This document shows positions 2,333 to 64,000 of a stretch of 64,000 nt of DNA, piece by piece. The notes under the pieces are model-generated. The model made no database searches and was not told where the DNA came from. It saw only the letters and a program-made list of their open reading frames with translations. Origin of the DNA: Yuukianura sp. NJ FZ-2021 (taxonomy: Eukaryota); contig CM102287.1 of the NCBI GenBank assembly GCA_046563655.1, forward strand, positions 1,674,001 to 1,738,000, read 5' to 3'. Each line of letters opens with the position of its first letter. Positions within the stretch are counted from its first letter, which is position 1. The translations under genes were made by a program, and so were the position numbers.

Positions 2333-3295
2333 CAAGGTAGGGCAATGCTCAAGGGTTGAGCATAGGTCTTCTGGAGGGAGTGGACAATTGATACGACTTA
2401 AATCACTCTAACGCTGGTGAACAAAATAATGTAAAACCGTTTTCATGTAGTTGATGCACCAAAGCGTCGCTCAAAATACTCAGTGCGGATGTGTGGTCCT
2501 ATTTTGTGCATACGTTGCACCAAAATTGGGTTGGCAATTCTACCATTTAATTGCACCAAAGTCATGTTTCAGTTTTGAGCCCCAAAATATTTGCACTGAA
2601 TTGATGTTGTTAATTTGTTGAGCAAGATGCACATAATGTATTTTCTGTATTGCCATGGCAATGTACTATTAGCGAAAACAGCGTAAACCAAACGGCATCA
2701 AAATAATATCGAAATTGAGCATTGTGCATGATGCACAAAATTGAACGCCGAGGAGTATGGGTCGAACATCCCTTCTTTGAAGTCAAAATCGGTTGAAATA
2801 CATGCACCATGTGTCAAATTAGGTGCATAAGTTATAGCGTCGAATATCACTTGTTTAAAATCAAAACTTAAAATTTTCTGGCAAAGGGAAACTTGAACCC
2901 TGCCAAGCACTGCTTACGTATTATGAATTTAAGCCGGAATTTCTACCTTCTAACAACGCTAAATTTAACAAAGCGTTTAAACTAAATGTCAGGAAATGAC
3001 CAGATCAAACTCCGTTGTTTAGAAATACTTTGAGTGCAATCGAAACCAAAACAGGTTTGCGGAGCCAAGATACTGCGGGTACGTAAAGTAGCCGCCCACT
3101 TCTACGTTGTTACGATAACACTTTGAGTGGAATGTAGACATAATGAAAACACTTGAGCGATACAGGACACCCCGTCAATAATGGAGGTAATGTTTCAGTG
3201 CAAAGGGTACTAAAAAACGTTACGGACGGACGGACGGACAAAGTCGTATCAATAGTCTTCTTCAGCACGTCGTAGACGTGCGTCTCCAGAAGACT
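2333..3295 (-). mobile_element. Non-autonomous Helentron-type element (HINE, DINE-1-like) inserted in the 3' UTR of LINE copy 1
   Basis: It interrupts aggtaaaaaggt, which is intact in the other copies. Subterminal inverted repeats are gtcttctggag (2366-2376) and ctccagaagac (3284-3294). A 5' inverted repeat lies at 3253-3296, a (GTCC)n microsatellite at 3222-3240, and a 3' hairpin atgctcaa-ggg-ttgagcat at 2345-2363. The target is a T-run and there is no coding capacity. Confidence 0.8.
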
Positions 3296-44600: not shown

Positions 44601-47319
44601 CGGATAGGTTTTTAAAAATAAACAGTTGTATACTGTCATTAGGTTAAGTGTTTAAAATTGTTTTCAATCAGTCAATTCGATTAAGTAGTAATAGTTGAGC
44701 ATTATTTTGATAATGAAAATGAAAATCATTTGATAATAGTAAACATCAAAGGTAAAAAGGTAAAAAGAAAGTAAAAACGAGAGAGAAAAAAAAAGAGAAA
44801 ATTAAATGAACTTCCTACTAGGTTGCTTGTTGTTTTCTTTCGTGAGGACGTCATTTTCTTGTATCTTCAGAAACTGTTTGTGTATGGCCGCTTTGAACGC
44901 TCCTTTAGTTTTGAGTTCCGTCGTTGCTTTTGGCAAGTAACCCCATAGTAGTTTCGTTTTTGATTTAAAAGAATTAGGAGTGATTGTTGTGTTCCTGGAG
45001 TGAATCATTTTTCGTGTTCTTAAGCCGGCTTCTTCTTCGGTGTCGTGCAAGTATTTCTCAAAATATGGAATGCTACGGTTGTTGAGGATATCAAATGCAT
45101 GAAGTAGTACCATCATGTTGTGTTGATGAGTAGGGAAGAGCCACCCAAGTTCCTTTGTGATCCGTAATTTCACTTTGTCGTATTTCTTGCTCTTGAGAAT
45201 AAAGTGACCCGCCGTGCGTACTATTTTTTCCGCTGATTTCAATTGTACTTTAGTTGCGCTACCCCATATTTCAGCCATGTACCAAAGCTTAGACAAAACG
45301 TAAGATGTCATCAGAGTTTCTCGGTTGTCTTGTGTAAGAAGTCTTTGCATAGGGTAGAGTGAGAATATGATTTTTAAACATTTCTTTGTTGTGTTCATGA
45401 TATGTGAATCCCACTTCAAGCAACCGTCTATGTTAAGGCCGAGGCTGGTGACTGTTTCTGTTGTTCCGACTGTTACATTCTGAAATTGAAACTGCACTCC
45501 TTGAATTATATTCCTTATCTTCGGTTTTGCCACGATGAGGATTCCAGTTTTCTCAGGGTGAATTGTGAATCCGTTTTTTGTGAATCCGTTGTGAATTGTG
45601 ATCCAACATAGCCCAGAATGACTTCTTAGTCACTTTTTGGTGAAAAAATTGAATTTTTTCACCAAAAATTTAGTTCTAGGCACTTTATGTGGTGATCGGA
45701 CTCAAATTTTCGGATTGCAAAATTGTGATCCAACATAGCCCAGAATGACCCCTTTGTCACTTTTTTTTTCGAAAAAATTGAATTTTTTCACCAAAAATTT
45801 AGTTCTAGGCACTTTATGTGGTGATCGGACTCAAATTTTCGGATTGCAAAATTGTGATCCAACATAGCCCAGAATGACTCCTTTGTCACTTTTTTTTGCG
45901 AAAAAATTGAATTTTTTCACCAAAAATTGAGTTCTAGGCACTTTATGTGGTGATCGGACTCAAATTTTCGGATTGCAAAATTGTGATCCAACATAGCCCA
46001 GAATGACTCCTTTGTCACTTTTTTTTGCGAAAAAATTGAATTTTTTCACCAAAAATTGAGTTCTAGGCACTTTATGTGGTGATCGGACTTAAATTTTCGG
46101 ATTGTAATATTGTGATCCAACATAGCCCAGAATGACTTATTTGTCCCTTTTTGGTGAAAAAATTGAATTTTTTCACCAAAAATTGAGTGCTAGGCACTTT
46201 ATATGGTTATCGGACTTAAATTTTCGGATTGAAAAATTGTGATCCAACGTAGCCCAGAATGACTTTGTCATTTTTTTTGCAAAAAATTGAATTTTTTCAC
46301 CAAAAATTGAGTTCTAGGCACTTTATGTGGTGATCGGACTCAAATTTTCGGATTGCAAAATTGTTGTTGTTGTTGTTTAGTTTATTTTCCTATTCCGGAT
46401 AGGTTTTTAAAAATAAACAGTTGTATACTGTCATTAGGTTAAGTGTTTAAAATTGTTTTCAATCAGTCAATTCGATTAATTAGTAATAGTTGAGCATTAT
46501 TTTGATAATGAAAATGAAAATCATTTGATAATAGTAAACATCAAAGGTAAAAAGGTAAAAAGAAAGTAAAAATGAGAGAGAAAAAAAAAGAGAAACATTA
46601 AATGAACTTCCTACTAGGTTGCTTGTTGTTTTCTTTCGTGAGGACGTCATTTTCTTGTATCTTCAGAAACTGTTTGTGTATGGCCGCTTTGAACGCTCCT
46701 TTAAGTTTTGAGTTCCGTCGTTGCTTTTGGCAAGTAACCCCATAGTAGTTTCGTTTTTGATTTAAAAGAATTAGGAGTGATTGTTGTGTTCCTGGAGTGA
46801 ATCATTTTTCGTGTTCTTAAGCCGGCTTCTTCTTCGGTGTCGTGCAAGTATTTCTCAAAATATGGAATGCTACGGTTGTTGAGGATATCAAATGCATGAA
46901 GTAGTACCATCATGTTGTGTTGATGAGTAGGGAAGAGCCACCCAAGTTCCTTTGTGATCAGTAATTTCACTTTGTCGTATTTCTTGCTCTTGAGAATAAA
47001 GTGACCCGCCGTGCGTACTATTTTTTCCGCTGATTTCAATTGTACTTTAGTTGCGCTACCCCATATTTCAGCCATGTACCAAAGCTTAGACAAAACGTAA
47101 GATGTCATCAGAGTTTTTCGGTTGTCTTGTGTAAGAAGTCTTTGCATAGGGTAGAGTGAGAATATGATTTTTAAACATTTCTTTGTTGTGTTCATGATAT
47201 GTGAATCCCACTTCAAGCAACCGTCTATGTTAAGGCCGAGGCTGGTGAGTGTTTCTGTTGTTCCGACTGTTACATTCTGAAATTGAAACTGCACTCCTTG
47301 AATTATATTCCTTATCTTC

Positions 47320-47580
47320 TGAGGGGTTACAGTGGTTGCAACCCAACCTCAAGGCAACCCAAAACTACGACTCGGCTCTTCTCCGTCTCCGCTCGTCTCG
47401 ACTTCACTTCAGTGGCTTCCCACCTCCGGACACAACAACAACTCCTCTCGTCAGTCTCTCCCTTCAGTCTCCATTTTCCAATTTCAAATTAACTTTATTT
47501 TCAATTTTCAATCAGTAACCTAAACTTAACGGTAATCTAAATAAACGGAGTGTTCACTCCTTCCACTAGCATCAACCTCA
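47320..47580 (+). mobile_element. Candidate 5' LTR of the outer element
   Basis: It starts TGAGG and could end CCTCA (47576-47580), with AATAAA at 47540-47545. An alternative end is CA at 47630 followed by a PBS-like TGGTGGA at 47633. No matching 3' copy was seen. Confidence 0.45.
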
Positions 47581-48570
47581 TCGTCAGTCGTTTCGTCTTC
47601 TTGTTTTTTGGGCTTGCCATTAGCCCGTCAAGTGGTGGATCGAGCTTCGTGCTGCACTCAGGGACCACCACAACCAGCCAACGACCTCTTCAGTGACATA
47701 CATCGTGGGATTGGACAGCAACCGTCGTAGTCAAGCGAAAATCTAACGGTAAAGTATCTGTTTTGATTGTTTCTGGGGGATATCGCGCGTGAGGCTAAAG
47801 TGAGAGATTCGTGAAACGATTGCTCGCATCCCCCCTTTTCTTTTCTCCCTTTTTAGCATACAGGTCACGATAGTTACCGTGTAGCTCAGAGGCAGAGCAA
47901 CAGTCCAGGTCAAATTCCGATTTTTGCAAATTTTGAGACCCCCCCTGCGCGAATTTTTTTTGAATAAGAAAAATTTTAGGTTTTTGGTGGCTTTTGGTGG
48001 CTCAGACTGGCCCCACCTTCATAATATCCATTGGTAATTGTCTCCCCCTCCCGTTTATTCCCATTTTACGTAGTTTCGAGGTCACTTTGACCCCGAAAAC
48101 ATCAAATTTAGGCACGAAAAGAGGAAAATTCAAGATGGCTGTCGTGATGCATGGCAGGAAGGACGCCAACATGGAGGCTCCCTTGTGGTGAAAAAGGAGG
48201 AAGACGAAGGAAGAATCCACTTCTTCCACCCGTCCCATGCTGTATGACCGACACCCCTCCTTTTTCCCCTATTTCTAGAAACTTCTTTCCCAACCATCAT
48301 CATTCACCAGTAGTTTGGCAATTGCCATTGCAAAACTTCAAAACCGTTTTTCCCTTTTAGAAGCCTACAACACAGGAAGGAGTGCCAATTACCAATTACA
48401 AATTGCGAAACTGAATTGCAAATTCCCAAATTCCTTTTTTTTGCAGGATCTTGGCAAAACTAATGCGAAATTTTTTCTAAAATTAAGTTTTTGCAGGAAT
48501 TAATTAAAAACAATGTCTAAATTTTGGCCGTACTAATTTTCTTTTGTTTCACTCAGTTTTCTACAAACTA

Positions 48571-48897
48571 ATGCAGTGGAGAGCCCTGCTTTTTGCAATT
48601 TCTGGATTTTGTCTGATGTTCAGTCTCCCCGAAGCAATCGAACTTGCGAAATTCATCGCGCTGAACGTAGACTCACGCTGTTTACCCGGACTACTGTCGT
48701 ACTTTTACAACTATCTGCTCTTCCACGTCCTTCCACTCATCTACTACCGTCGTCACCGGCACTTCGCAATTTTCATTCCGGTACTTTACGACGCTGAAGT
48801 CTGGTTTTTCATCACGATTGTGGGGAGACTGATCTACTTTCACCTCGACGTACTGGGACTGAGTCACTTCACCCTGTACGACATTTCTTTTATCTAA
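48571..48897 (+). CDS. Small hydrophobic ORF (108 aa) upstream of gag, possibly a membrane protein
   Basis: ATG at 48571. Signal-peptide-like N-terminus (ALLFAISGFCLMFSL), then hydrophobic LLSYFYNYLLFHVLPLIYY followed by basic RRHRH. No recognised homology. Confidence 0.35.
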   Translation: MQWRALLFAISGFCLMFSLPEAIELAKFIALNVDSRCLPGLLSYFYNYLLFHVLPLIYYRRHRHFAIFIPVLYDAEVWFFITIVGRLIYFHLDVLGLSHFTLYDISFI

Positions 48898-48951
48898 GGG
48901 AACGGTTCGAATTTTTTTTTCTAAACTTTTTTTTGAAATTGGGCCCTAACT

Positions 48952-50451
48952 ATGTTTGCGAGTTGGATGTTAAGTAATTCCTTAGAGCAGCAGCAGCAAA
49001 TCGAACCACCGAAAACTCCAACTGCCCAGACACCGCAACCCGAACCCAGATCTCCACGTCCCAGAGTACTTGGCCAATTGGAGCCACCACCACTTCGCCG
49101 TTCACAGGCTACGTCACCTCGTTCTCCCCGAATTGTAGACGAGCCTACCACATCACGCAGACAGAGACAAGTATCGCAAGTCACACTTTTTCCACCGGAG
49201 GCACAGACTGTACCTACAGTCACTGTTGCTCCTCCTCCGCCAGAACCTGTCCCTGCCCCGTTTGTAGCCCCACCTGCTCCACAGCCAGCACCAGTCCCCC
49301 CCGTTTCTCTCCCCGCAAATCCAGCACCCACCCCAAGAATCATGGCTCTCCCCAACCAACCGATTGTCCCCATTCCAGCTCACTCAGGCCCAGGAATCAA
49401 CATTTTTAGGGACCTTCGCAAGTATGATGGGAAGGGAGATCCTGAGGAGTTTTTGGATCGGTATGTCTCTGATTTATCAGAGCAGGGGGCCTCCATGAAA
49501 TTCATGTTGGAGGGATTTGACAGGGTACTGGAAGGTTTGGCTGCGTCATGGTATGCGTCAGCCTGGCCAAATTTTAAATTCAAATTAAATCAAGGTTTGG
49601 ACGTTGCACTAATCTGGTCTGAGTTTCAGGATCAGTTTTTAAATCATTTCTCCCTCAGAGACAGGAAGTCGGAATTTCAGGAGAGGAACAGGAACTTGAG
49701 ATTTTCGGTTGGGGACAATCCAGACAACTACGTTTTCAAGAAGCTGGAGATTTTCAAGGGTCTGGATCCCTACATGTCAGATTTGGACAAGGTTGACCTC
49801 TTGACCCGTGGGCTGCCTCTGGATTTGGAACGCTCCTTCGCCCTTTTGTCCTTTAGGAATCCCCACGAATTCCTGCAAAAGCTTCGCAAGATGGCAGAAG
49901 TAAACTCCCGACATCCTTCCAATGAGCTACCAGCCACTCAAGCCAAAGTCCAAGGATTAGGAGTCGGAAATGAACAGCAGCGAGAACCCCCTCGTGAAGC
50001 TCTCCGTGGACCGTCAGGCTACGAACAAAGACAATACAACAATTATCCGGGCCCTTCCAACTATGCTCCAAGATACAACAGCCAGAGTCGTGACTATGGC
50101 CGCCCAGGTCAAGGTCAAGGTCAAGGTCGTCAGAGCCATCTCATTTGCCATTACTGTGGGAAGCCGGGCCACATCAAACCTAGATGCTTCCAGTATTTGG
50201 ATTCCTTGAGGGATGCACAAGCTGCCCATGCAGCGGCTGGAACACAACCAGCCCCGATTCCGTCCCTCCTTTCTCTTCCCGTCCAGCAGCCCCCACCACC
50301 ACAGCAACAACAACGACCTGCACCCGATCCTTATCTGCAGATGTTCGAGTCCATCCAGCGTTCCTTGGATATTCTGACCAGACAGGGTCAAGGTCAACCG
50401 AACCCACCAGCCCAGCCACAAAATCCAGCTCCTCCGGGGGCGGGAAACTAA
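48952..50451 (+). CDS. gag: Gag of the outer Ty3/gypsy element
   Basis: Pro-rich N-terminus, capsid motifs YDGKGDPEEFL, LEGLAASWY and WSEFQDQFLNHF, and nucleocapsid knuckle CHYCGKPGHIKPRC. Confidence 0.93.
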   Translation: MFASWMLSNSLEQQQQIEPPKTPTAQTPQPEPRSPRPRVLGQLEPPPLRRSQATSPRSPRIVDEPTTSRRQRQVSQVTLFPPEAQTVPTVTVAPPPPEPVPAPFVAPPAPQPAPVPPVSLPANPAPTPRIMALPNQPIVPIPAHSGPGINIFRDLRKYDGKGDPEEFLDRYVSDLSEQGASMKFMLEGFDRVLEGLAASWYASAWPNFKFKLNQGLDVALIWSEFQDQFLNHFSLRDRKSEFQERNRNLRFSVGDNPDNYVFKKLEIFKGLDPYMSDLDKVDLLTRGLPLDLERSFALLSFRNPHEFLQKLRKMAEVNSRHPSNELPATQAKVQGLGVGNEQQREPPREALRGPSGYEQRQYNNYPGPSNYAPRYNSQSRDYGRPGQGQGQGRQSHLICHYCGKPGHIKPRCFQYLDSLRDAQAAHAAAGTQPAPIPSLLSLPVQQPPPPQQQQRPAPDPYLQMFESIQRSLDILTRQGQGQPNPPAQPQNPAPPGAGN

Positions 50452-50478
50452 CTAAGCTGCCGTTGCAGGAACGACAGC
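50442..50478 (+). promoter_or_regulatory. -1 programmed ribosomal frameshift signal (gag-pol)
   Basis: In-frame G GGA AAC (50442-50448) lies just before the gag stop. A 7-nt spacer is followed by the stem gctgccgtt/aacgacagc (50456-50478). pol is in the -1 frame. Confidence 0.8.
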
Positions 50479-50729
50479 ATCCACCATCTCGTGTCGTAAA
50501 TTCCAGGAGAAAGAGGGTTTTTGGTAGGAATCCTCCTGTCTCCCGGCAATCTAGCAAGTATGTTCTAATTGATTCTAATACTTTAAACAATTTTTTCTCT
50601 AGTTTAGTCTAAGTCCCAACTTCTCGTCGTCCCCCCCGTTCTGATTTTTCTAATTTTTCACCGAATCCCCGATTTACCCATAGGATCGCCCGGTCCCAGT
50701 GTGCAGATCGCCCGGAGTCATCTAATTCG

Positions 50730-53300
50730 ATGTATGTAAGACCCCCCTGTTCCCCCATGTCTAATTTTGATGATTTAGATTCTCAGGTTTTAGGTGGATT
50801 TGGTACTTTTACTGCCCGAGACAGCCGTCCTTCGCCCCCTTCTGTCCACCATACTCTTAAAGTCCCGATTTTCTTTTCTGGTTTTGAAGAAAGCGCTTTA
50901 GCGGACACTGGAGCGTCTATTTGTGCAATGAATCCCCAATTTTTGCGTCGTATTTCTTCTTCTGTTGAGGCTGTTCATGAAATTACCCCCATGAAAACAG
51001 CATTTTCAGTTACTGGCCCGGAGTCTTTCATCAATCAGGTTGCTCTTGTGAAATTTGAATTTTTTGGTTGTAATTACTCGTATTTTTTCTACGTCATTCC
51101 CAACCTTTCTAACCCCGTAGTCATAGGCATGGACTTCATCCTCCATTACGATTTCCTTCTGGATCCGAAGAACGCTTTGATGTGGAGACGCCAGGACACA
51201 AACCCGTTTTGCCCTTCCATTCCCCCAGGTCCTAAAGCGCAGTCTCAGCCTCCAGAAAAACAATCACTTCAGTCCACTACCCTATCTCAGACCACTGCAC
51301 CCTCAGACGATTCAACAAAGGCTGAAACGCTCACTACGAGCTCTACTTGCTCTACTTGCTCAGAATCTGCAAAAACTACAGCGTCAGAGCCCGCAGACAC
51401 AGAATCTACGTCATCCTCCGATTCTTCTGACATGCGCAGAACAGTTTCTCTGGATCGGACATACGACATTCTCCCGGGGTGCATGAAGAGAGTCAACATC
51501 AAGTCCAGCGTCACTTTCTCCGGAGACATAGCCATCACCCCGAACCAGGAATTCCAAGAAAAACAACATGTAGCTGTCGGTAACTGTATCGTTTCACTTG
51601 ACAATGGCAAAGGCATCACATTTCTTTGGAACTTGACTAATTCCCCTATTCGTGTCTTCAGATCCACCATTATTGGAGATTGGTGCCCGTTTCAAGGACT
51701 TTTAGGTTCCCAGAAGACAGTAGATCCAGCCACAGTCAAGCCAGTCATTTGCGGCCTCTCTGTTGACCTCAGTCCAGATGAGGAACTCGCCATTCTGCAG
51801 AAACGATTTGACCAACTCGAACTACAACTTGGGGAAAGGCTAACTCCGGAAGAAAAGTCGTCGCTTCGTCAGCTTCTGTTCCAGAACAGGGACATGTTCT
51901 CCTCAAACCCCACAGAAATTGGCCGTACCCATTTAGTCCAACATCACATCGACACAGGAAACGCCAGACCAGTCAGATCGCATCCTTATCGCGTCGGTCC
52001 CATTGAACGTCAAGAAATTGCCAAGGAAGTTTACCGTCTCATGGATCTCGGGTTTGTCCGTGAGTCCAACAGTCCCTGGAGTTCCCCGGTTGTCCTTGTC
52101 AAGAAGTCAGACGATAGTTGGCGTTTCTGCGTCGACTACCGCCGTGTCAATGCCCTAACCAAGAAAGACTCCTACCCGCTTCCTAGGATCGACGACACTT
52201 TGGATCGACTTGGTGGAGCCAAGTACTTTTCTTCAGTCGACTGCGACCAGGCCTACTACCAAGTCGAAATTGCGGAAGAAGACAAGGAAAAGACAGCATT
52301 TGTCACCCCTGACGGCCAATACCAGTTCGACGTGATGCCATTCGGACTTTCAAATGCTCCTGGGACTTGGCAGAGACTAATTGATCGTGTCCTCGGAAAT
52401 CTCAAATGGACAAGTGCACTTGTGTACTTGGACGACATAACCATTTTTTCCCGCACTTTCTCTGACCATTTGACCCACCTCAACCAGGTTTTTGCAGCTC
52501 TACGATCCGCTAACTTGACTTTGAAACCGAAGAAGTGCGTTTTCGGTCATCATGAGTTGAAGTTCCTGGGTCACATCGTCTCTTCAGAAGGAATTCGTCC
52601 AAATCCAGAGAAAGTCGCAGCAGTTATGGAATTCCCAAGACCGACAAGCACCAAAGGAGTTCGTTCCTTCGTCAGTCTCTGCTCCTACTACAGAAAGTTC
52701 ATGGAAGGATTTGCTTCTGTCGCCAGACCACTGCACGCACTTTGTGGAGCAAAACCAGGAGACGAATTCGTTTGGAGTCAAGAAGCTGAGACTGCCTTTA
52801 CGTCACTCAAAGCCCTTTTGTCCTCCCCTCCTGTTCTAGCTTTCCCCTCAGAAGATGCGCCAACTTCCATTCACACAGACGCGAGCGCCATTGGTTTCGG
52901 TGCCACCCTCGTCCAGACAATTGAGGGAGTTGAGAAGGTAATTGCCTACGCGTCTAGGGTCACTTCGAAGACAGAATCTAACTACGGAGCAGCAGAACTT
53001 GAGATGAAAGCAGCAATCTGGGCTGTTTCCCATTTTCGTCCTTACCTCTACGGGAGACACTTTAAACTCATAACGGATCACAGAGCCTTAACGTCCCTTC
53101 TCCGTTTTCGTGACCCCCATGGGAGACTCGCTAGGTGGGCTATTGCACTTCAGCCTTACGATTTTCAAGTCATACATCGCTCCGGCCGTGTACACCAAGA
53201 CGCTGATCCACTTTCCCGCAATCCCGTTTGGCCCGCTCCCTCAGATTGCGATCATTTAGCAATTGAAGGTCACCTCTTAGCCCTTTCTCTCTTTCCCTTA
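50730..53300 (+). CDS. pol: Pol of the outer element: aspartic protease, reverse transcriptase, RNase H (N-terminal part of the chimeric 50730-55022 ORF)
   Basis: ALADTGAS; SPWSSPVVLVKK, WRFCVDYRRVN, MPFGLSNAP, VYLDD, KFLGH; HTDAS, ELEM, TDH, DADPLSR. The right boundary is approximate. Confidence 0.93.
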
Positions 53301-55022
53301 GGTTCTAGGAAAGTCACCTTTCCTACTTATGATACTGAAAATGAAGAACCGAACGTACCACCGCATAGACCGCCTATATCACATGTTAGCACTAGACAAG
53401 AAGGTCCAAATAACACAGACAGAATTAGAGAACAAGGTCAACGTACTGAAAATTCTAATGTAACGCAGAACGTTATGACTCAGCCTAATCCAGGTGCAAG
53501 TCGTGCTACAGTAGCAGCCAGAGCCAGTATCTCACCAGAACAAATAGGTCCGCAGAATATTCCGAAACGAGTAATTAGACAATTAGGTCTAGAACAGGAG
53601 GGTTTAGACACATGGTCAGATTTTAAAAAGTGGTTAGACAAAATTCCTAAAAAGAAAAGTGTCAGAGGCGACGTGAGTTCAGTCGACGTCTCAGACGAAG
53701 AAAAAGATTCAGATGATTATGATGACGAGAAAAGTAGTGATGATGAAAGTGAAGTAGACAGTCGAAAGAAAAACCGAATGCCAAAGGTCAACTACGTTAT
53801 TACGGGTATTAACCCGAATATACCGATACCAGTCTACGACTACAGAAAGCGAACAGCTGTTTCTTATTTACATGATGTAGAGTCGTACTTTCAAAGTCAA
53901 AATTATACGAAAGACAAGTACTTGTATTTGATCAGAACGATTATGACAAAGGAGGTCAAATCTTGGTTCGATAACGTCAGAGACGACATAAAAACATGGT
54001 CAGAGTTTAAAAAAGCGTTTATAGCCAAATACGATTCAGTCGCAGAGAAAGAGTTTAGAGCAAGGTTGTTATTAACCAGAAAACAGAAAGTTACAGAGTC
54101 TGTAGAGTCATTTGTATGGGAAATGGTTACTCTAAGTCATCAGGTGAATCCGAAAGAAGAGACACATGTCATTGTACGCAGATGCAGAGACGCTCTGTAT
54201 CCTACAATTCGGACATTGATTGGTTATAGTGCTAGTTGGACGCCGACGGATTTAATTAATGAAGCGAAAAGAGTCATTTACGATTTGAGATCAGAGGCTA
54301 AACGAACGAAAACGTATATCCCAATTCCTCAGGTTAATACTATTCCAGTTGAGCAGAGTGAACTTAATTCAGCTCACAAAACAGATTCTAACGCTACAGA
54401 GTCACAAAATCATAGATTTCCAGAGAACATACAATTCAAGGGAAACCGTAATCGAGGAAATTACCATGGAAGTCAAGAAAGAGTTCAAAATTTTCGAAAT
54501 TCTCAAAATTTTCAAAACAATGAAGGTCAACCAAGTGAAACGCGGAGTTATATGACATACCAAGGTCAAAGTTCTAGAGGCAGAGGTAATTCCTATGTGA
54601 TCAGACAAGGGAATAATACCCCAGAGTACTTGGCAGAGGATCACAATTTTTATTTTCAAAACAATAGACGTAAGGATTACTTCGAACGAGACTTTCAAAG
54701 TCAGAACAGACATTTTAATCAACAGAAGAAGGAGTTAACCTGTTTTGTATGCCACCAGATTGGTCATTTTGTTCGAGATTGTCCAAATGTAAACGCAGTC
54801 GCCATGACGTATAATCCTAGAGAAGAGAATTGTGAAGGTCAGAGACAAGAATTTTCGAATATCACATTTCAACAAAATAATCCAAGAGACCAAAGTCAGG
54901 AAGAATTTTCTCACAACACAATGCCAATTTTTTCGAGTAGAAGTTATAAGAGGAACGACGTGTTCGACGATGTTCCTCCCCAAAACCAAAACAGCCAGGA
55001 AAATCAATATTTAAATTACTAA
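53300..55022 (+). CDS. gag: Gag of the nested element, fused in frame to the outer pol
   Basis: Capsid-like YLHDVESYF, EVKSWFD, TWSEFKKAFIAKY and KQKVTESVESF; knuckle CFVCHQIGHFVRDC. It ends at an in-frame slippery heptamer T TTA AAT (55010-55016). Confidence 0.85.
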
Positions 55023-56200
55023 AGAGCAGAGTCCCACCAAGTCTCAATTTACCCCATAATTATTGCAGAGATTTAGTGTTTAAAATTTAGTATTCAAGAA
55101 TTTAAATACTTAAAAAAGACAATGTGCGCAGATGTCACATTAGACATTACATAGTTTAGATTAGCCAAAAAGATTTCTATCGCAACAGACAGTTCAGATT
55201 ATGGGATTTCCGCAGCGTTATTCCTGAAATTAAAAGGAAAAAGCGAAGTTGTACATTCAACAGTTTACAGAGCAACAGTAACAGCTCTTAAGACAGATCA
55301 AAATTTAGTAGATGATGAAATAGAAATACGGGATGCTCCCAAGGTTAGGTCGACGTGCTCGACGATGACCTGACACGTTGTCAAATTTCAAATGTATAGT
55401 TAGTTAAAGTTTAATCTAGAAGAGTAAAAGAGAGAATCAGAAATTATTGAAATCAGAAAGAAAATATTAAAATCACAATGATTGAAAGAAATAAATTGAA
55501 AGAAACGAGCAATTGTCCTCGCACAAAAAGCAGAATTATGCTGTTAAAAATGACGTAGTAGTCAGAATTGTTTATTTTACAAAAGCAGAGTTGCTAAGAA
55601 AAGAGATCTCCAAAAATATTTCCAGTGATACGCCAGAACTCCAGAAAGTTAACGTATCTGTTAAATACAGGCATTAAATACCTGGAAAATACAGGCCTTA
55701 CCCGGGAGCAACAGTCTAGCCCCGCGGAATATGAGCACATTGCGCTGCCATTAAATGAATCAGAAAAAAGTACGTACAGAAAATGAGAAAGTCGACTTAG
55801 TTAGGAAAAGAAATAGGTTATAAGATAGAATTAAAATTTTAGTGCTAGGTATTACAATGATGTGGAGAGAATTGATTTTGAGTTCAAATTAAAGTGTCAT
55901 GAACTAATATACCGCAAATTATGCCAAAAAGTTTCTATGGTTCGTTAGCCAACAAGGTTTAATAACTTTCAAATAGACAGAGATGTTTCCAATAAAAGAA
56001 ACGACAACAAATAGATTAATTGTTTGACGAACTAAGTATTTGGACAAAACGGAAGTCTTAAACGAATTATTGCGAATCAAGGGGCTTAATCTCTTTGAAC
56101 TTTAGTGTCAAACTGTTGTTCAACATCTCAGAGTCAAAGTTACAAAAATACTTACAGAAGTTTATTGTATGGGTTCGAAACCATATGAGCAAGTTTCAAA
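55023..56200 (+). pseudogene. Heavily decayed and internally deleted pol relic of the nested element
   Basis: 55161-55259 translates LAKKISIATDSSDYGISAALF... (RNase H TDAS motif). 55968-56030 gives FK*TEMFPIKETTTNRLI and 56069-56086 gives IANQGA (integrase-core-like). Many stops. Confidence 0.65.
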
Positions 56201-56579
56201 AAGTATAATGACCCAGATTAGTTTAACAGTGTTCAACAAAAGCAGTCAGTATTGAGTCGACGCAGTGCTGTATTGTAATAAATTACGAACACGGGGCAGA
56301 AAGTTACTCAAAACCATTACCAATAGCGAAATAACCGAAAAAACAAGCGTTCTCAGATCAAAACCACAGTTAATTATACAGCGTTACCAGGTTTAAGAAT
56401 ATAGATTAAGTTAGTACCCCGGGTTAGATTAAGTTAGGCTAAAGTAGCATAAGTCAGAGTTAGTGAAATAATGTAAAAATGTATAATAATCCAGTTTACT
56501 TTAATTAATTTATGAAATAGATCAAATTTCAAAAGCAAACAGTTTAGAGATAAAAAAAATTAAAGCCTATCATAGAGAA

Positions 56580-58527
56580 ATGCACAAAATAAGTGGAGGT
56601 CAAAAGAGTGCCGACCAGTCTAAGTATCTTATGTTTTTAAAGCGACGAAGAGTAGTCAATTTCAAAGGAGACATTGTGTTCAGACAGAGTCACCCTTATC
56701 AAGAAAAGATCGTTAAATGGAATCCGAAAAGAAGTATTCTTAAAGCATTGGTATTTCCACAACATCGAATTCAACATTGGATCAACACAGAGTATCATGC
56801 CGACCAGATGATGGCACATTTGTTGACTAAAAAGATTATTTTTGTGGATACGGAACATTGCCAATCAAATTCTTTCAAAACGTACATCGCAATTATACAA
56901 ATTTCGACCGAAGAACATGATTTCGTGATCGATGTGCCACCATTGATTCCATGGTTACTTAAACACCTACCGAAAGTGTTATCAAAGTCCAAATTCCTTA
57001 AAGTATTGTCAGGTGGCGACAATGATCTTTTGTTGCTCCAACAAGACTTTAACATCTTCGTATACCCGGCCATTGACTTACAAGAATTTTACTATAAAGT
57101 GTACAAAGACAGTCAAGAAGAGTTTAAGCCAATCGGTTTGGCTACAATGCGTCACCACTTACTCAAAAGTACAGTAAACAAAGAAGCACAAGCAGCAGAT
57201 TGGTCTACGAGAGACAGAATCGGTAGATTACCGAACGATTTATTTGAATATGCACGATTGGACACATATTACTTAATTTTACTTTGGAATGTGTTAGTGG
57301 AGAAGATTGAGGTCGATGTGCTCAACAATGACCTCAGGAAGGAGTTTTCGGATGAAAACACAAATCAAAAGTTTCCAATTTCGGCAAAGAGATGCTTAGC
57401 ATTGCTAAAACCCACTAAAAGTTCATTAGAAACTGAGTTAGCTAAGCACACGTCAACGTCACATCAAATCTACCAAGCTATGTTTCGAAAAATATTTATG
57501 TGGACAGAGTATCGAACAAAGGCACTCGATAAACCAATAGTTCAAATCTTAAAAAGCGAAATTATAGCAGAAATTGCTAAAAAATCACCATTACAAAATT
57601 ACAAATGAAGACTTACGAAAAATTACAAAATATACTCACAAATACGAAAATGATATTCTGAGAGTTATTTCAGACACAAACAGCCTCATCCTAAGCGTCT
57701 ACAACGTCCCACCTTCACAATTCGGAATCGTCGCCAGTCAAAAACCATTCTACGAGAAAAATTTCAGCGAAGAGGAGATGGAAATTCGACAAATCAGCGA
57801 GACAAGTTCAGATTCAGACTCAGAAGATAGCGACATGGAGATTGAATGTGAAGTTTACGAAGAATCCGACCCAGAAATTGTCTATGAGCTCATCAATCTC
57901 ATTCCAGACGAACAATTCCAAATCATTCCAGTCACCAAACAAGAAAATCTTCAACGCATCAATTCAGAATCCCAATCGGAACAAGTCAGTACTTCACAAC
58001 CACACCCAGAAGAAGAAGAACCATCCCCAGAACAACCCGCACCAGACCCAGAATTCCTCAACATTCACGCCGACTACGACGACATCGAGATTTTTCCGCA
58101 ACCGACAACTACAAAAAAATGCTGGTGGTGCTTTTCTACTGGACACAGTCACAAAAACTGCGAAAATCCGAAAGCCCGCTACAAAATGATCAAAGCAAAC
58201 CCCGACCAGAAAAAGAAGTACAACAAAAAACATAAGGAGTGGCTGCGGCGGAAACAGAAACGAGGAGGACCCATGCAGAAACCAGGACGCCCCCTTATTC
58301 CAGTCGAAGGACCCCCAGGAGGAGGTCAAGGGGCTCTTTCGAAGGAGAGTGTGAGGGAGCATCACCCCCACCCACCCAACTCAGCAGATCCAGCGCCAGA
58401 GGAGGAAGACGGAGCGGAGCAGCTTCACTCCTGGAGCGGACGGCGAGGAGACAGGAGGACAAGACACGACACAGGACACAGGATCATCATTTGTATCATA
58501 TTTTATATATATTATTATTATTATTGA
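56580..58527 (+). CDS. Second Rrp6/EXOSC10-like DEDDy exonuclease + HRDC-like + acidic linker + CCHC knuckle + basic tail; split by a 1-nt frameshift near 57580-57600
   Basis: FVDTEH, IIQISTEEHDFVID, SGGDNDLLLLQQDF, QAADWSTR, YARLDTYYL and HRDC-like FRKIFMWTEYRTKALDKP in ORF 56580-57608. It continues in 57574-58527 with an acidic region, CWWCFSTGHSHKNC and a Lys/Arg-rich stretch. Confidence 0.85.
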
Positions 58528-58623
58528 TTGACTGGTTTATCTTTCAATAAACCAGTATCCAGCATCTTATTCTGTGTGCCTCATTTCAGGTTCTTATTGG
58601 TTGAGAGGATCGTTTGTTTCACA
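58350..58623 (+). mobile_element. 3' LTR of the nested element (274 bp)
   Basis: PPT gaaggagag (58341-58349), 5-bp inverted termini TGTGA...TCACA, a TATA-like run near 58504-58512 and AATAAA at 58546-58551. Confidence 0.75.
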
Positions 58624-59742
58624 CACGTCCTAGTGGTGACTGACCTCCATACTCGTTACATGGAAGCGTGGCCCGTAACCAATTCGACCTCAGAAAATGC
58701 CATCAAGATACTTGAGCAACACGTGTTCTCCCGCCATGGAATTCCGTCTCAAATCCTCATGGATCAAGGATCTCATTTCATGTCAGCCGAATTCCAGGAT
58801 CATCTTAAAGACTACGGAATCAAAGTACGGAGATCAGCAGCCTACAATCCGCAGGCCAATGGAGTCGTAGAGAGACATAACGGGACCATCAAAGCCACTC
58901 TGGCTAAACGTGTCGCTGACAACCACAAAGATTGGGATTTGCATCTCCATAAAGTCGTTTTTTCATTTATTTGCTCTACACACAAGGTAACGAAATTCTC
59001 ACCTTATTACTTAGCCTTTGGTAGAGAGCCTGTTGTCAAAACGGACAAGCTCTTCCCGATTGTCGAAAACCCCATTTTAGAGTCACCGGAAACAGTTCAG
59101 CTTCGTTCGGAAGTCGCAAATGTCATCGCATCTCAAAGGACACGAAAAGATCAAGTCCATCGACAGGCAGAAGTCAGCAAGAAACGTAAACCTCGCAAAT
59201 ACTTCGTTGGGGACATTGTTCTCTGGATGAACTTTCACCTCAGGAAACGACATGTCCGAAAATTCGAGCCGAAATGGAAAGGTCCCTACAAGATTTTGGA
59301 GGTTATCAGCCCAGTCAATGTCAAAATCCAGAGTATCGTGAAGAAACGCAAAGCCTTTGTCGTTTCTACGTCTCAGATCAAACTCTACAAGGAACCCCGA
59401 GAAGAAATCGAAATAGAAGAATTTGACCCGTCTGACCCCATTGACCTCGAATCCACTTCGTCTTTGCCCGTTTTGTCCCCTAATTCAGATACCCGTTTGC
59501 CCGTTCCCACCATTTCCGATTCCCCTCCTTCCCTTACCCCATTTGACTCTAGTTCATCGGTCGCTGAAATTGGAAAAGATAAGGAATTGGAGTCTCGAGA
59601 AATCCTGCATCTCGAGAACGATCCAGTTCTGCCCAGTAGTGGACCTACCACCGCTTCTGAGCCACCAGCCCCTCAAAACAGTGCAATTTTGCAATGGCTG
59701 GGCCGATTACGACCGAGAAAACCCCCCGCAAACAAAAAATAA
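58624..59742 (+). pseudogene. Integrase of the outer element, N-terminally truncated
   Basis: HVLVVTDLHTRYMEA, D(35)E pair MDQG...NGVVER, SPYYLAFGRE and GPY/F module KWKGPYKI. The HHCC finger and first catalytic Asp are missing. The listed ORF start (58528) is LTR read-through. Confidence 0.9.
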
Positions 59743-59817
59743 TCATGCGCGCATTTAGTTAGTTTAGGTTAGTTTTTGATTCTCTTATTCATTTTATCTT
59801 TTTTCTGCTTTTTAGAT

Positions 59818-60411
59818 ATGGAAGAACTGACTAAAGCTGCGGAGGATCTTTCGCTTCAGGAGTGTACTGCTCCTTCGCTCCCGATGGAGGAAGATTCTCT
59901 TTTGGAGTTGTCTGAGTCGGAAGCAGCCGAGCCACTTCCGACCCCTGAACAAGAACTTCTGCTTTTGGGAGATGAGTTTGGCCCCCCTCCAGCGCCAATT
60001 GTGCCAGTTGTGATGGAGACTGAGCCGATTTTAGACTCCAGGCCACCTACGACTTGGTTTCCGCCACTTGTCCCCACTCCCGTTTCTCCCCCTCATAGGC
60101 CAAGACGTCGTCGCCCCACCCGTTTCCACCCCTTTCAAGTTCCAAAGTCTGTGCTTGACGCAGTGATGGTTTCCCAGCCTCAATCTCCACCGGTTCCTCT
60201 CATGGGATTAACTTTGGAGGCTCCCGTCACTCGTCGTCATGCACGTCCCTTCGGACAAGCTGCTTCTCGTCACGTCCCTCCGATTGGCCGTTCCCAGAGT
60301 CCACCAGGAAGAGAGAACCCGCAATTTCCGCATTTAAACATGGTGGCCAGGGACAGAGTTGAAGATCCGTGTCCAACTCCAAGGCGTGAGCGTCGCCCTC
60401 AGCGATTCTGA
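59818..60411 (+). CDS. Pro-rich/acidic ORF3 (197 aa) of unknown function downstream of the integrase
   Basis: ATG at 59818 lies two bases after a strong polypyrimidine-AG splice acceptor (59815). The product is acidic, then Pro/Arg-rich (HRPRRRRPTRF). No env-like transmembrane segment. Confidence 0.5.
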   Translation: MEELTKAAEDLSLQECTAPSLPMEEDSLLELSESEAAEPLPTPEQELLLLGDEFGPPPAPIVPVVMETEPILDSRPPTTWFPPLVPTPVSPPHRPRRRRPTRFHPFQVPKSVLDAVMVSQPQSPPVPLMGLTLEAPVTRRHARPFGQAASRHVPPIGRSQSPPGRENPQFPHLNMVARDRVEDPCPTPRRERRPQRF

Positions 60412-60720
60412 AGCGTGGTGGATCATCGGTTGACGATTTGGCTTTTTTCTCCGGTAATTTTTCGGTAACGGATAATATTTTTTCCTTTATTCATTCATAA
60501 TTGGCAGATTTTTCATTTAAAGTACCCTAATCCTTTCAAGATTTAGCCTCAGACGTGTATTTTTCCTAAATTTACCCCCTACCCGTTTTTCCCCCTCAAT
60601 TAGGCTTAAAATCATTTGCTAAATTAGAACTCCCAATTCGGTTTAACCATTTTTATCGTTTTCAGAGTCCATTCCCGCTTTTTCCCCTCAGTTTTGTTCT
60701 ATTTCCAGGAACAAGATTAA

Positions 60721-63700
60721 CTTCGGTTTTGCCACGATGAGGATTCCAGTTTTCTCAGGGTGAATTGTGAATCCGTTTTTTTGTGAATCCGTTGTGAATT
60801 GTGATTCAACATAGCCCAGAATGACTTCTTTGTCACTTTTTTTGCGAAAAAATTGAATTTTTTGCGAAAAAATTGAATTTTTTCACCAAAAATTGAGTTC
60901 TAGGCACTTTATGTGGTGATCGGACTTAAATTTTCGGATTGCAAAATTGTGATCCAACATAGCCCAGAATGACTCCTTTGTCACTTTTTTTGCGAAAAAA
61001 TTGAATTTTTTCACCAAAAATTGAGTTCTAGGCACTTTATGTGGTGATCGGACTTAAATTTTCGGATTGTAATATTGTGATCCAACATAGCCCAGAATGA
61101 CTTATTTGTCCCTTTTTGGTGAAAAAATTGAATTTTTTCACCAAAAATTGAGTTCTAGGCACTTTATGTGGTGATCGGACTCAAATTTTCGGATTGCAAA
61201 ATTGTGATCCAACATAGCCCAGAATGACTCCTTTGTCACTTTTTTTTGCGAAAAATTGAATTTTTTCACCAAAAATTTAGTTCTAGGCACTTTATGTGGT
61301 GATCGGACTCAAATTTTCGGATTGCAAAATTGTTGTTGTTGTTGTTTAGTTTATTTTCCTATTCCGGACAGGTTTTTAAAAATAAACAGTTGTATACTGT
61401 CATTAGGTTAAGTGTTTAAAATTGTTTTCAATCAGTCAATTCGATTAATTAGTAATAGTTGAGCATTATTTTGATAATGAAAATGAAAATCATTTGATAA
61501 TAGTAAACATCAAAGGTAAAAAGGTAAAAAGAAAGTAAAAATGAGAGAGAAAAAAAAGAGAAACATTAAATGAACTTCCTACTAGGTTGCTTGTTGTTTT
61601 CTTTCGTGAGGACGTCATTTTCTTGTATCTTCAGAAACTGTTTGTGTATGGCCACTTTGAACGCTCCTTTAGTTTTGAGTTCCCTCGTTGCTTTTGGCAA
61701 GTAACCCCATAGTAGTTTCGTTTTTGATTTAAAAGAATTAGGAGTGATTGTTGCGTTCCTGGAGTGAATCATTTTTCGTGTTCTTAAGCCGGCTTCTTCT
61801 TCTGTGTCGTGCAAGTATTTCTCAAAATATGGAATGCTACGGTTGTTGAGGATATCAAATGCATGAAGTAGTACCATCATGTTGTGTTGATGAGTAGGGA
61901 AGAGCCAACCAAGTTCCTTTGTGATCCGTAATTTCACTTTGTCGTATTTCTTGCTCTTGAGAATAAAGTGACCCGCCGTGCGTACTATTTTTCCGCTGAT
62001 TTCAATTGTACTTTAGTTGCGCTACCCCATATTTCACCCATGTACCAAAGTTTAGACAAAACGTAAGATGTCATCAGAGTTTTTCGGTTGTCTTGTGTAA
62101 GAAGTCTTTGCATAGGGTAGAGTGAGAATATGATTTTTAAACATTTCTTTGTTGTGTTCATGATATGTGAATCCCACTTCAAGCAACCGTCTATGTTAAG
62201 GCCGAGGCTGGTGAGTGTTTCTGTTGTTCCGACTGTTACATTCTGAAATTGAAACTGCACTCCTTGAATTATATTCCTTATCTTCGGTTTTGCCACGATG
62301 AGGATTCCAGTTTTCTCAGGGTGAATTGTGAATCCGTTTTTTTGTGAATCCGTTGTGAATTGTGATCCAACATAGCCCAGAATGACTCCTTTGTCACTTT
62401 TTTTGCGAAAAAATTGAATTTTTTCACCAAAAATTGAGTTCTAGGCACTTTATGTGGTGATCGGACTTAAATTTTCGGATTGCAATATTGTGATCCACCA
62501 TAGCCCAGAATGACTCCTTTGTCACTTTTTTTGCGAAAAAATTGAATTTTTTCACCAAAAATTGAGTTCTAGGCACTTTATGTGGTGATCGGACTCAAAT
62601 TTTCGGATTGCAAAATTGTGATCCAACATAGCCCAGAATGACTCCTTTGTCACTTTTTTTTGCGAAAAAATTGAATTTTTTCACCAAAAATTTAGTTCTA
62701 GGCACTTTATGTGGTGATCGGACTCAAATTTTCGGATTGCAAAATTGTGATCCAACATAGCCCAGAATGACTCCTTTGTCACTTTTTTTTGCGAAAAAAT
62801 TGAATTTTTTCACCAAAAATTGAGTTCTAGGCACTTTATGTGGTGATCGGACTTAAATTTTCGGATTGCAATATTGTGATCCACCATAGCCCAGAATGAC
62901 TCCTTTGTCACTTTTTTTGCGAAAAAATTGAATTTTTTCACCAAAAATTGAGTTCTAGGCACTTTATGTGGTGATCGGACTCAAATTTTCGGATTGCAAA
63001 ATTGTTGTTGTTGTTGTTTAGTTTATTTTCCTATTCCGGATAGGTTTTTAAAAATAAACAGTTGTATACTGTCATTAGGTTAAGTGTTTAAAATTGTTTT
63101 CAATCAGTCAATTCGATTAATTAGTAATAGTTGAGCATTATTTTGATAATGAAAATGAAAATCATTTGATAATAGTACACATCAAAGGTAAAAAGGTAAA
63201 AAGAAAGTAAAAATGAGAGAGAAAAAAAAAGAGAAACATTAAATGAACTTCCTACTAGGTTGCTTGTTGTTTTCTTTCGTGAGGACGTCATTTTCTTGTA
63301 TCTTCAGAAACTGTTTGTGTATGGCCGCTTTGAACCTCCTTTAGTTTTGAGTTCCGTCGTTGCTTTTGGCAAGTAACCCCATAGTAGTTTCGTTTTTGAT
63401 TTAAAAGGATTAGGAGTGATTGTTGTGTTCCTGGAGTGAATCATTTTTCGTGTTCTTAAGCCGGCTTCTTCTTCGGTGTCGTGCAAGTATTTCTCAAAAT
63501 ATGGAATGCTACGGTTGTTGAGGATATCAAATGCATGAAGTAGTACCATCATGCTGTGTTGATGAGTAGGGAAGAGCCACCCAAGTTCCTTTGTGATCCG
63601 TAATTTCACTTTGTCGTATTTCTTGCTCTTGAGAATAAAGTGACCCGCCGTGCGTACTAATTTTTCCGCTGATTTCAATTGTACTTTAGTTGCGCTACCC

Positions 63701-64000
63701 CATATTTCAGCCATGTACCAAAGTTTAGACAAAACGTACGATGTCATCAGAGTTTTTCGGTTGTCTTGTGTAAGAAGTCTTTGCATAGGGTAGAGTGAGA
63801 ATATGATTTTGAAACATTTCTTCGTTGTGTTCGTGATATGTGAATCCCACTTCAAGCAACCGTCTATGTTAAGGCCGAGGCTGGTGAGTGTTTCTGTTGT
63901 TCCGACTGTTACATTCTGAAATTGAAACTGCACTCCTTGAATTATATTCCTTATCTTCGGTTTTGCCACGATGAGGATTCCAGTTTTCTCAGGGTGAATT
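60721..64000. repeat. Composite satellite/LINE array resumes: remainder of copy 26 (60721-60796), copy 27 (~61332-62357) and copy 28 (~63004 to window end)
   Basis: Same monomer and LINE fragment, with a few more private substitutions than the upstream copies. Confidence 0.96.

Follow-up and report, generated by a model that had tools for sequence, protein, structure and literature searches.

The 64,000-nucleotide window analysed here (Yuukianura sp. NJ FZ-2021, assembly GCA_046563655.1, contig CM102287.1, positions 1,674,001 to 1,738,000) carries a gene for a predicted 3'-5' exoribonuclease of the Rrp6 type. The gene lies within a block of apparently retroelement-derived sequence, block B (53318-58623), that is nested in the integrase gene of a Ty3/gypsy element, element A, and replaces 478 letters of that gene. 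Coordinates are those of the window, and features lie on the plus strand unless stated otherwise. An initial annotation of this DNA had assigned the nuclease to the env position of a Ty3/gypsy element; its place after pol in a Ty3/gypsy-like element is borne out, but the carrier is the nested block B and not the surrounding element A.

The nuclease gene of block B

The coding region of the nuclease, 56580-58527 overall, is spread over two reading frames. The first piece (56580-57608) starts at 56580 and encodes an N-terminal extension, a DEDDy exonuclease domain and the first half of a putative HRDC domain, and the second piece (57574-58300) encodes, by its translation, the rest of the HRDC domain, an acidic stretch, a zinc knuckle and a basic tail. 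The frame of the second piece stays open to 58527, the part from 58300 onwards being probably non-coding, purine-rich DNA. Residues 66-243 match the Pfam family DNA_pol_A_exo1 (E 1.2e-24, 87.5 bits against a cut-off of 23.6), and the five catalytic positions, all of them already recognised in the initial annotation, are present: D90 and E92 (D-x-E), D149, and Y224 and D228 (Y-x3-D). In an alignment of 24 sequences these residues occupy columns that are invariant or conserved to at least 90%, and they align to the motifs of EXOSC10. A sequence search of the PDB returned 17 matches, the top 13 all being Rrp6/EXOSC10 (E 1.3e-13 to 3.4e-12) and the weaker ones RNase D, NrnC and a mut-7 homologue (E 0.003-0.005). 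The phmmer alignment to human EXOSC10 pairs residues 37-338 of the query with residues 255-546, spanning the Rrp6-type N-terminal extension and reaching into the HRDC region, where helices are modelled at 295-335. An AlphaFold model built with the 24 aligned sequences has a mean pLDDT (predicted local distance difference test) of 84.5; a Foldseek search of the PDB with this model places Rrp6 catalytic cores in its first 12 ranks (311-329 aligned columns, E 8e-17 to 4e-15), and RNase D and Nibbler come next at about 1e-11, five orders of magnitude weaker. By sequence and by modelled fold, the block B nuclease is the catalytic core of a predicted Rrp6-type, distributive 3'-5' exoribonuclease.

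Downstream of the HRDC domain the protein departs from Rrp6. No match to Rrp6 is found beyond this domain, and the tail runs from the acidic stretch through a knuckle of the form C-X2-C-X4-H-X4-C (58120-58161) to the basic tail, the acidic and basic parts being read from the translation. Two relatives, P0003 (E 2e-8) and P0010 (E 6e-6), have C-termini homologous to this knuckle and tail, which shows that the second frame genuinely codes for part of the same protein; in P0003 the corresponding knuckle scores 19.8 bits with Pfam PF00098, for a cut-off of 20.8. The Rrp6-like exonuclease first proposed from the letters of the sequence is in this way upheld by Pfam, the PDB, the alignment and the fold, and the putative HRDC domain and knuckle proposed along with it agree with the alignment to EXOSC10 and the C-terminal homology. 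The only PDB matches of the second piece are nucleocapsid knuckles, and these are weak (E 0.6-1). In Rrp6, the PMC2NT domain binds Rrp47 and Mtr4, and together with the C-terminus it provides the ties to Rrp47/Mtr4 and to the exosome. Pfam finds no PMC2NT in the block B nuclease ORF (open reading frame), and a PDB search, by sequence only, gave the second piece no match to Rrp6 or to its C-terminal exosome-association region. The nuclease may work alone, without the exosome.

The initial annotation described the gene as intronless and did not notice that it is broken at 57590-57608, where ORF 56580-57608 stops and reading resumes in the +1 frame from 57574. We compared this site with other copies of the block, using contigs of four public runs aligned to the window (X1-X4, X4 being another organism from another study). 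At 57590 the contigs of other copies differ in length by a number that is not a multiple of three, at all of the depth in X1 and X3 and at part of it in X2 and X4. The frame break is private to the copy of block B in the window or to a subset of copies. Programmed frameshifting around 57600 was considered and ruled out, since the contigs of other copies differ in length there. The same contigs reveal, in all four runs, a variant of block B with 101 other letters in place of 748 at the beginning of the nuclease gene (56507-57256); further internal skips and back-joints show the B family to be structurally heterogeneous.

Block B and its nesting in element A

In block B, a gag gene is followed by relics of RNase H and of integrase; next comes the nuclease ORF, and the block closes with a purine-rich tract and a short TG...CA end. 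The gag gene (53319-55022) encodes a capsid-like domain and a CCHC knuckle without any internal stop; its Pfam matches are Retrotrans_gag (1.6e-6), Arc_capsid_dom (1.2e-4) and zf-CCHC (2e-4), the first and last above their cut-offs, and one homologue from the database, P0164, shares 39% identity with it and contains PF03732 and PF00098. On the 5' side of 53329 other copies continue with a shared sequence (four contigs, agreement 0.95) that holds an in-frame ATG, which indicates that B is truncated almost exactly at the start of gag. The following stretch (55023-56579) is a degenerate pol remnant with 28, 47 and 35 stops in its three frames. In a tblastn search with the pol and integrase of element A, an RNase H relic (55176-55337, E 0.006) and an integrase-core relic (55985-56086, E 0.076) were recovered in the correct order. 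Other copies diverge from the window inside the RNase H relic, with a loose end at 55241. An earlier candidate explanation, a foreign insertion without long terminal repeats (LTRs) and with a non-coding spacer, was dropped once these relics were found in the spacer.

The 3' end of the block (58400-58623) consists of a purine-rich, polypurine-tract-like stretch (58400-58483) and a terminal stretch of about 130 bp with TG at 58492, a TATA-like run, AATAAA at 58546 and CA at 58623. As this terminal stretch has no 5' partner in the window, it is called a putative short 3' LTR by inference. The placement of the gene between pol relics and a polypurine tract and LTR, as well as the end coordinate 58623 proposed beforehand, agree with these findings, 58623 being the exact end of the inserted block; of the flanking LTRs and gag/pol that an element of this kind should show, the gag, the relics and the TG...CA end are there, but paired LTRs are not in the window. 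We consider it about 70% probable that block B is a 5'-truncated, largely pol-deleted Ty3/gypsy-like LTR element that carries the nuclease as its ORF3 and is nested in element A.

Copies of the block seem to be numerous and diverged. The contigs aligned to the window number 551, 572, 196 and 111 in X1 to X4, with identity classes from 99+ to under 90, and B occurs in the second organism at about 93% identity (X4 record 27).

Element A surrounds block B on both sides. Its left part (47320-53317) comprises a 5' region, gag (48952-50451) and, from 50730, pol with protease, reverse transcriptase and RNase H (Pfam RVT_1 1.4e-37, RT_RNaseH 4.5e-32), and its right part (58624-60716) comprises an integrase core without the N-terminal part, an ORF at 59776-60411 and the 3' end. 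The integrase ORF (58528-59742) matches Pfam rve with E 3.9e-17 at profile positions 23-102 of 102, the first 22 positions being missing. Two contigs, one of 7767 letters in X3 and one of 1603 letters in X4, join 53317 to 58624, skipping 5306 letters and placing 478 other letters between them. These joints, found in two organisms, imply that normal copies of element A lack block B. At about 53350 and again at about 58500-58600 the composition switches, GC content being about 0.47 in A and about 0.36 in B, with a plus strand rich in adenine and an opposite AT skew in the block. Three X4 contigs continue unlike one another after 58623 (agreement 0.56). By chance, the pol of A and the gag of B share one open frame, and the resulting 1430-residue ORF is a by-product of the A/B junction; as a practical trap, an intact-looking gag-pol-integrase frame can conceal a nested second element.

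Together, the two parts of A and the block form a 13.4-kb insertion (47320-60716) in a satellite array, whose empty site is seen in another array unit and whose junctions both carry the duplicated 4 bp CTTC. We found no LTR pair of element A: there are no direct repeats of at least 25 nt, and its ends share no word longer than 11 nt. Element A combines a clean empty site and a 4-bp duplication with ends that share no repeat and a 3' end without a final CA. Over 47320-47766 the summed contig depth is raised, and the 5' end of A, which spans these positions, may be an LTR with a missing 3' partner. Two further ORFs of A have no Pfam match, one of 117 residues and hydrophobic character before gag (48544-48897), the other of 211 residues, rich in proline and arginine, after the integrase (59776-60411) and preceded by a splice-acceptor-like TTTTTAG.

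A second nuclease gene and the wider family

A second gene of the same kind lies at the very start of the window, in what we call element 1. It spans 2-1684, is cut by the window edge at its open 5' side, and encodes an exonuclease domain (DNA_pol_A_exo1, 3.4e-26), an HRDC domain (1.2e-3, below cut-off), an acidic stretch, a variant Cys/His motif and an arginine-rich basic tail. Its product is 26% identical to the block B nuclease (BLASTP 7e-21). The stop codon overlaps an 18-nt polypurine tract (1683-1700), which is followed by about 400 bp running from TG (1701) to CA (2103), with AATAAA at 1950, that abut the satellite array. In element 1 no other gene separates the nuclease from the terminal repeat, an LTR that is unpaired in the window, and its final position is plain. 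This second gene and the many diverged contigs in the runs support a multi-copy family.

An exhaustive HMMER search recovered 1747 proteins at E <= 0.001, 585 of them at E <= 1e-10; the best matches are some 500-620 residues long, and their exonuclease domain begins at about residue 60-125. Among the 24 aligned family members, all contain the exonuclease domain, 17 the HRDC domain and none PMC2NT, which canonical Rrp6 matches do carry. A C-terminal knuckle was found in 9 of 163 fetched proteins. We placed the two window genes in a quick maximum-likelihood tree of 75 rows, rooted with six RNase D-like genes from long metagenome contigs that were taken as bacterial. Of the 35 rows labelled "short" in this tree, 32 group in a single clade (Shimodaira-Hasegawa-like approximate likelihood-ratio test, SH-aLRT, 95) that contains both window genes; its sister clade includes all 21 PMC2NT proteins, and the block B protein pairs with P0003 (SH-aLRT 99). 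The description of the gene as a captured host enzyme is not supported by this topology, the family being sister to the sampled canonical Rrp6 proteins and not nested in them.

When 30 members were looked up, the only named ones came from the springtail Orchesella dallaii, namely five representatives and one further cluster member (P0015, P0016, P0038, P0167, P0050 and P0052), which are annotated as ordinary proteins; the accessions of the springtail proteins are CAL8135783.1, CAL8133578.1, CAL8123257.1, CAL8117413.1, CAL8103629.1 and CAL8134906.1. The remaining members derive from metagenome, ENA or Logan contigs, and JGI names some of these members "ribonuclease D" or "RRP6". In a scan of metagenome loci, only one of the 80 loci kept, L001, exceeded 31% identity (46%), and the others (22-31%) look like distant RNase D-type genes. 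L001 (1-1082) is the nearest environmental relative of the B nuclease; it is a 1082-letter contig broken into three frames, as expected for a decaying repeat copy. A scan of viral contigs revealed no relatives of the nuclease, and a word-based protein search with it gave none at near lengths and only two transcriptome Rrp6-like proteins at longer ones.

Two proteins of the canonical Rrp6 kind also end in a CCHC knuckle, P0034 (by its placement in the tree) and P0096 (by length only). Together with a kinetoplastid protein cluster that carries zf-CCHC, they indicate that the exonuclease-knuckle combination arose more than once. The initial statement that cellular Rrp6 has no such knuckle was too strong, 2 of the 9 knuckle-bearing proteins being canonical.

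Outside the elements, most of the window (4100-47319 and 60717-64000) is taken up by the satellite array, whose units are 96-99% alike. Each unit of about 1.7 kb combines a 3' fragment of a gene resembling those of long interspersed nuclear elements, visible as 243-residue ORFs on the minus strand, with 3-10 copies of a 128-bp tandem repeat. The first array unit is interrupted by a 956-bp insertion (2340-3295) with about 8 bp of array sequence duplicated on either side and, towards the ends, imperfect inverted repeats such as the 17-nt pair 2383-2399 and 3241-3257 (94% complementary); the insertion resembles a small element with terminal inverted repeats, similar to miniature inverted-repeat transposable elements.

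Possible role, alternatives and comparison with known systems

A number of observations weigh against the proposed nature of block B and of its nuclease. Among the domains named for the gene at the outset, the exonuclease is well matched in Pfam, but on this copy HRDC stays below threshold on either piece, the domain being split by the frame break, and zf-CCHC gives no match at E <= 0.01. The RNase H and integrase relics are weak, their E-values coming from a small search; no protease, reverse transcriptase or primer-binding site of B lies in the window, where no direct repeat of at least 25 nt joins its ends either; and the label of LTR element is drawn from the gene order and the end features, without a full-length copy. 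X1-X3 may come from the sample behind the window assembly, which makes X4 the one independent run, and contig depth does not equal copy number and was not used as such. The tree was built without WRN, Mut-7 or EXD sequences, places 3 of the 35 short rows among canonical Rrp6, and has long branches (2.08 for the element 1 gene, 2.18 for P0003), so that the clade of short proteins could be an artefact of long-branch attraction. The Orchesella dallaii proteins could be host genes, the linkage of relatives to elements being known from this window alone. Lastly, the sequence differences that bear on selection are a biased sample: more than 1300 differences were recorded, and the 16 belong to the 40 listed as "best supported".

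These differences, 8 of the 16 listed inside the nuclease ORF being synonymous, offer together with the state of the frames a weak hint that the nuclease matters to the element: the gag of B has no stops and the nuclease none before the frame break, next to 28, 47 and 35 in the pol remnant. Other copies share the decayed pol stretch. With gag and nuclease open, pol full of stops and the decayed stretch common to other copies, the pattern suggests that selection maintained gag and nuclease in a non-autonomous lineage whose pol was supplied in trans.

On the preferred reading of block B as a truncated element with its own nuclease, B would first have inserted into the integrase gene of element A; a later loss, probably a single deletion, would then have removed the 5' LTR of B and the first letters of its gag together with the 478 neighbouring letters of A. 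The knuckle and basic tail may act like a nucleocapsid module, which would bring a free-standing, exosome-independent exonuclease to the element RNA or the nucleoprotein particle, where it could trim RNA 3' ends, for instance of the primer, of the genomic RNA tail or of RNase H leftovers. We regard this trimming of element RNA as the most likely role, at odds somewhat short of even.

The same anatomy would also accommodate a counter-defence factor that trims or destroys host small RNAs (piRNA, siRNA) or their precursors, a role that we consider unlikely. It is suggested by the presence of small-RNA-acting DEDDy enzymes, Nibbler and Mut-7, among the structural and sequence matches, and by the 3'-5' exonucleases that other viruses are described to use against host sensing (PMC7968707). 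The nucleocapsid-like knuckle and tail, however, fit the targeting of particle or RNA at least as well, and in the study of the comparable ORF3s of bdelloid rotifers, copy number was not clearly linked to ORF3 (PMC5408684).

It seems improbable that the nuclease is instead a host gene amid transposon debris, whether an Rrp6 retrocopy, a processed pseudogene or a domesticated small-RNA trimmer of the Nibbler or Mut-7 kind. The closest solved relatives are indeed cellular Rrp6 proteins, the springtail relatives carry ordinary annotations and the copy in the window is frame-broken. Yet the absence of PMC2NT and of any match to the Rrp6 C-terminus, the separate clade outside canonical Rrp6, the conservation of knuckle and tail among relatives and the many diverged copies in the runs, including the second organism at about 93% identity, speak against a host gene. 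The order of gag, pol relics, polypurine tract and TG...CA end also argues against it, all the more as the 26%-identical paralogue at 2-1684 likewise precedes a polypurine tract and a TG...CA end.

Still more doubtful is an origin of block B from another multi-ORF retroelement, for example a Penelope-like or Terminon-like one. Such an origin would agree with the lack of a visible LTR pair, reverse transcriptase or protease of B, and with the DEDDy ORFs that bdelloid LTR elements and Athena/Terminons are described to have in common (PMC5408684; PMC6431247). Against it stand the RNase H and integrase-core relics, which resemble Ty3/gypsy pol, a gag of the Retrotrans_gag/Arc kind, and the polypurine tracts and TG...CA ends that follow both nuclease genes; moreover, no telomeric repeats were seen, and an Rfam scan of 47000-61000 matched no family at gathering score, hammerhead motifs included.

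The reading in which the well-preserved element A carries the nuclease in its env position can be set aside: the nuclease does lie inside a single 13.4-kb insertion with an empty site and a 4-bp duplication, in which the pol of A and the second gag form one open frame, but contigs in two organisms carry A with 478 other letters in place of 53318-58623, and the block sits between RNase H and the integrase core rather than after integrase, differs sharply in composition (GC about 0.36 versus about 0.47, opposite AT skew) and has its own gag and pol relics.

Taking block B as an element in its own right, we tentatively propose, as one possibility, an undescribed large retroelement lineage, in soil arthropods (springtails) and other small invertebrates, that carries an Rrp6-derived, exosome-independent exonuclease-knuckle protein and in which the gene would matter enough for non-autonomous derivatives to keep gag and nuclease and lose pol. 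Accessory genes of retroelements reveal limiting steps of their life cycle; should this lineage exist, the nuclease would be a replication or anti-silencing factor taken from the class of enzymes that cells use against aberrant RNA. If the family is element-borne and selected, it would offer a tractable protein for the question of what a private 3'-5' exonuclease is used for, RNA and primer processing or defence against small RNAs, and a route to understanding how an RNA-surveillance enzyme left the exosome.

Among known systems, a cluster of kinetoplastid proteins in the Atlas resembles the window nuclease in combining DNA_pol_A_exo1 and zf-CCHC in one protein, but its members are cellular protist proteins of about 381 residues with no HRDC domain listed, and the Atlas score of 0.82 makes it a lead only. 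RNase D, Nibbler, Mut-7 and the WRN exonuclease share the DEDDy fold, RNase D also the HRDC domain, whereas the matches to RNase D, Nibbler and Mut-7 are far weaker than those to Rrp6 (0.003-0.005 versus 1e-13 in the PDB, about 1e-11 versus 1e-16 with Foldseek). Rrp6/EXOSC10 itself shares with the window nuclease the N-terminal extension, the DEDDy domain, a putative HRDC core and the five catalytic residues, and is its best match in sequence and fold. In contrast to Rrp6, the window nuclease lacks PMC2NT and any match beyond the HRDC domain, belongs to a separate, fast-evolving clade, and occurs in multiple copies inside retroelements.

In the literature searched (subscription journals, Repbase and GyDB lying outside its coverage), we found no report of an Rrp6-HRDC-knuckle ORF in retroelements, nor of one in springtails, and exonuclease cargo is described in bdelloid rotifers only, without an assigned role. 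There, the LTR elements Juno and Vesta and the Athena/Terminons carry DEDDy ORF3s (Rodriguez et al., 2017, PMC5408684), an account repeated in later reviews (PMC6431247; PMC6338049), and these ORF3s, to which the initial annotation had already pointed for LTR elements, are the only precedent that we found in print. The resemblance is considerable: in both cases Ty3/gypsy-like elements have an additional ORF downstream of pol for a 3'-5' exonuclease of the DnaQ/RNase D superfamily, more than one element lineage of the same genome carries this ORF, and its role is unexplained. The bdelloid ORF3s are described as recognised via HHpred, with DEED in place of DEDD, and as not close to cellular Rrp6, RNase D, WRN or mut-7 (PMC5408684); the words HRDC and zinc knuckle are absent from the main text of that study, which gives a Cys-His-Cys motif only for Vesta2 and Vesta5. 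Set against this published description, the window nuclease differs in being found directly by Pfam and the PDB with its DEDDy residues intact, in carrying a putative HRDC domain after the exonuclease and a canonical knuckle and basic tail at its end, and in having its nearest named relatives in a springtail and not in a rotifer. The window presents a much clearer version of such cargo, with a readily recognised Rrp6 core, intact catalytic residues, a putative HRDC domain and a nucleocapsid-like tail, carried by two divergent elements of one genome and with relatives in a springtail genome and in many environmental contigs.

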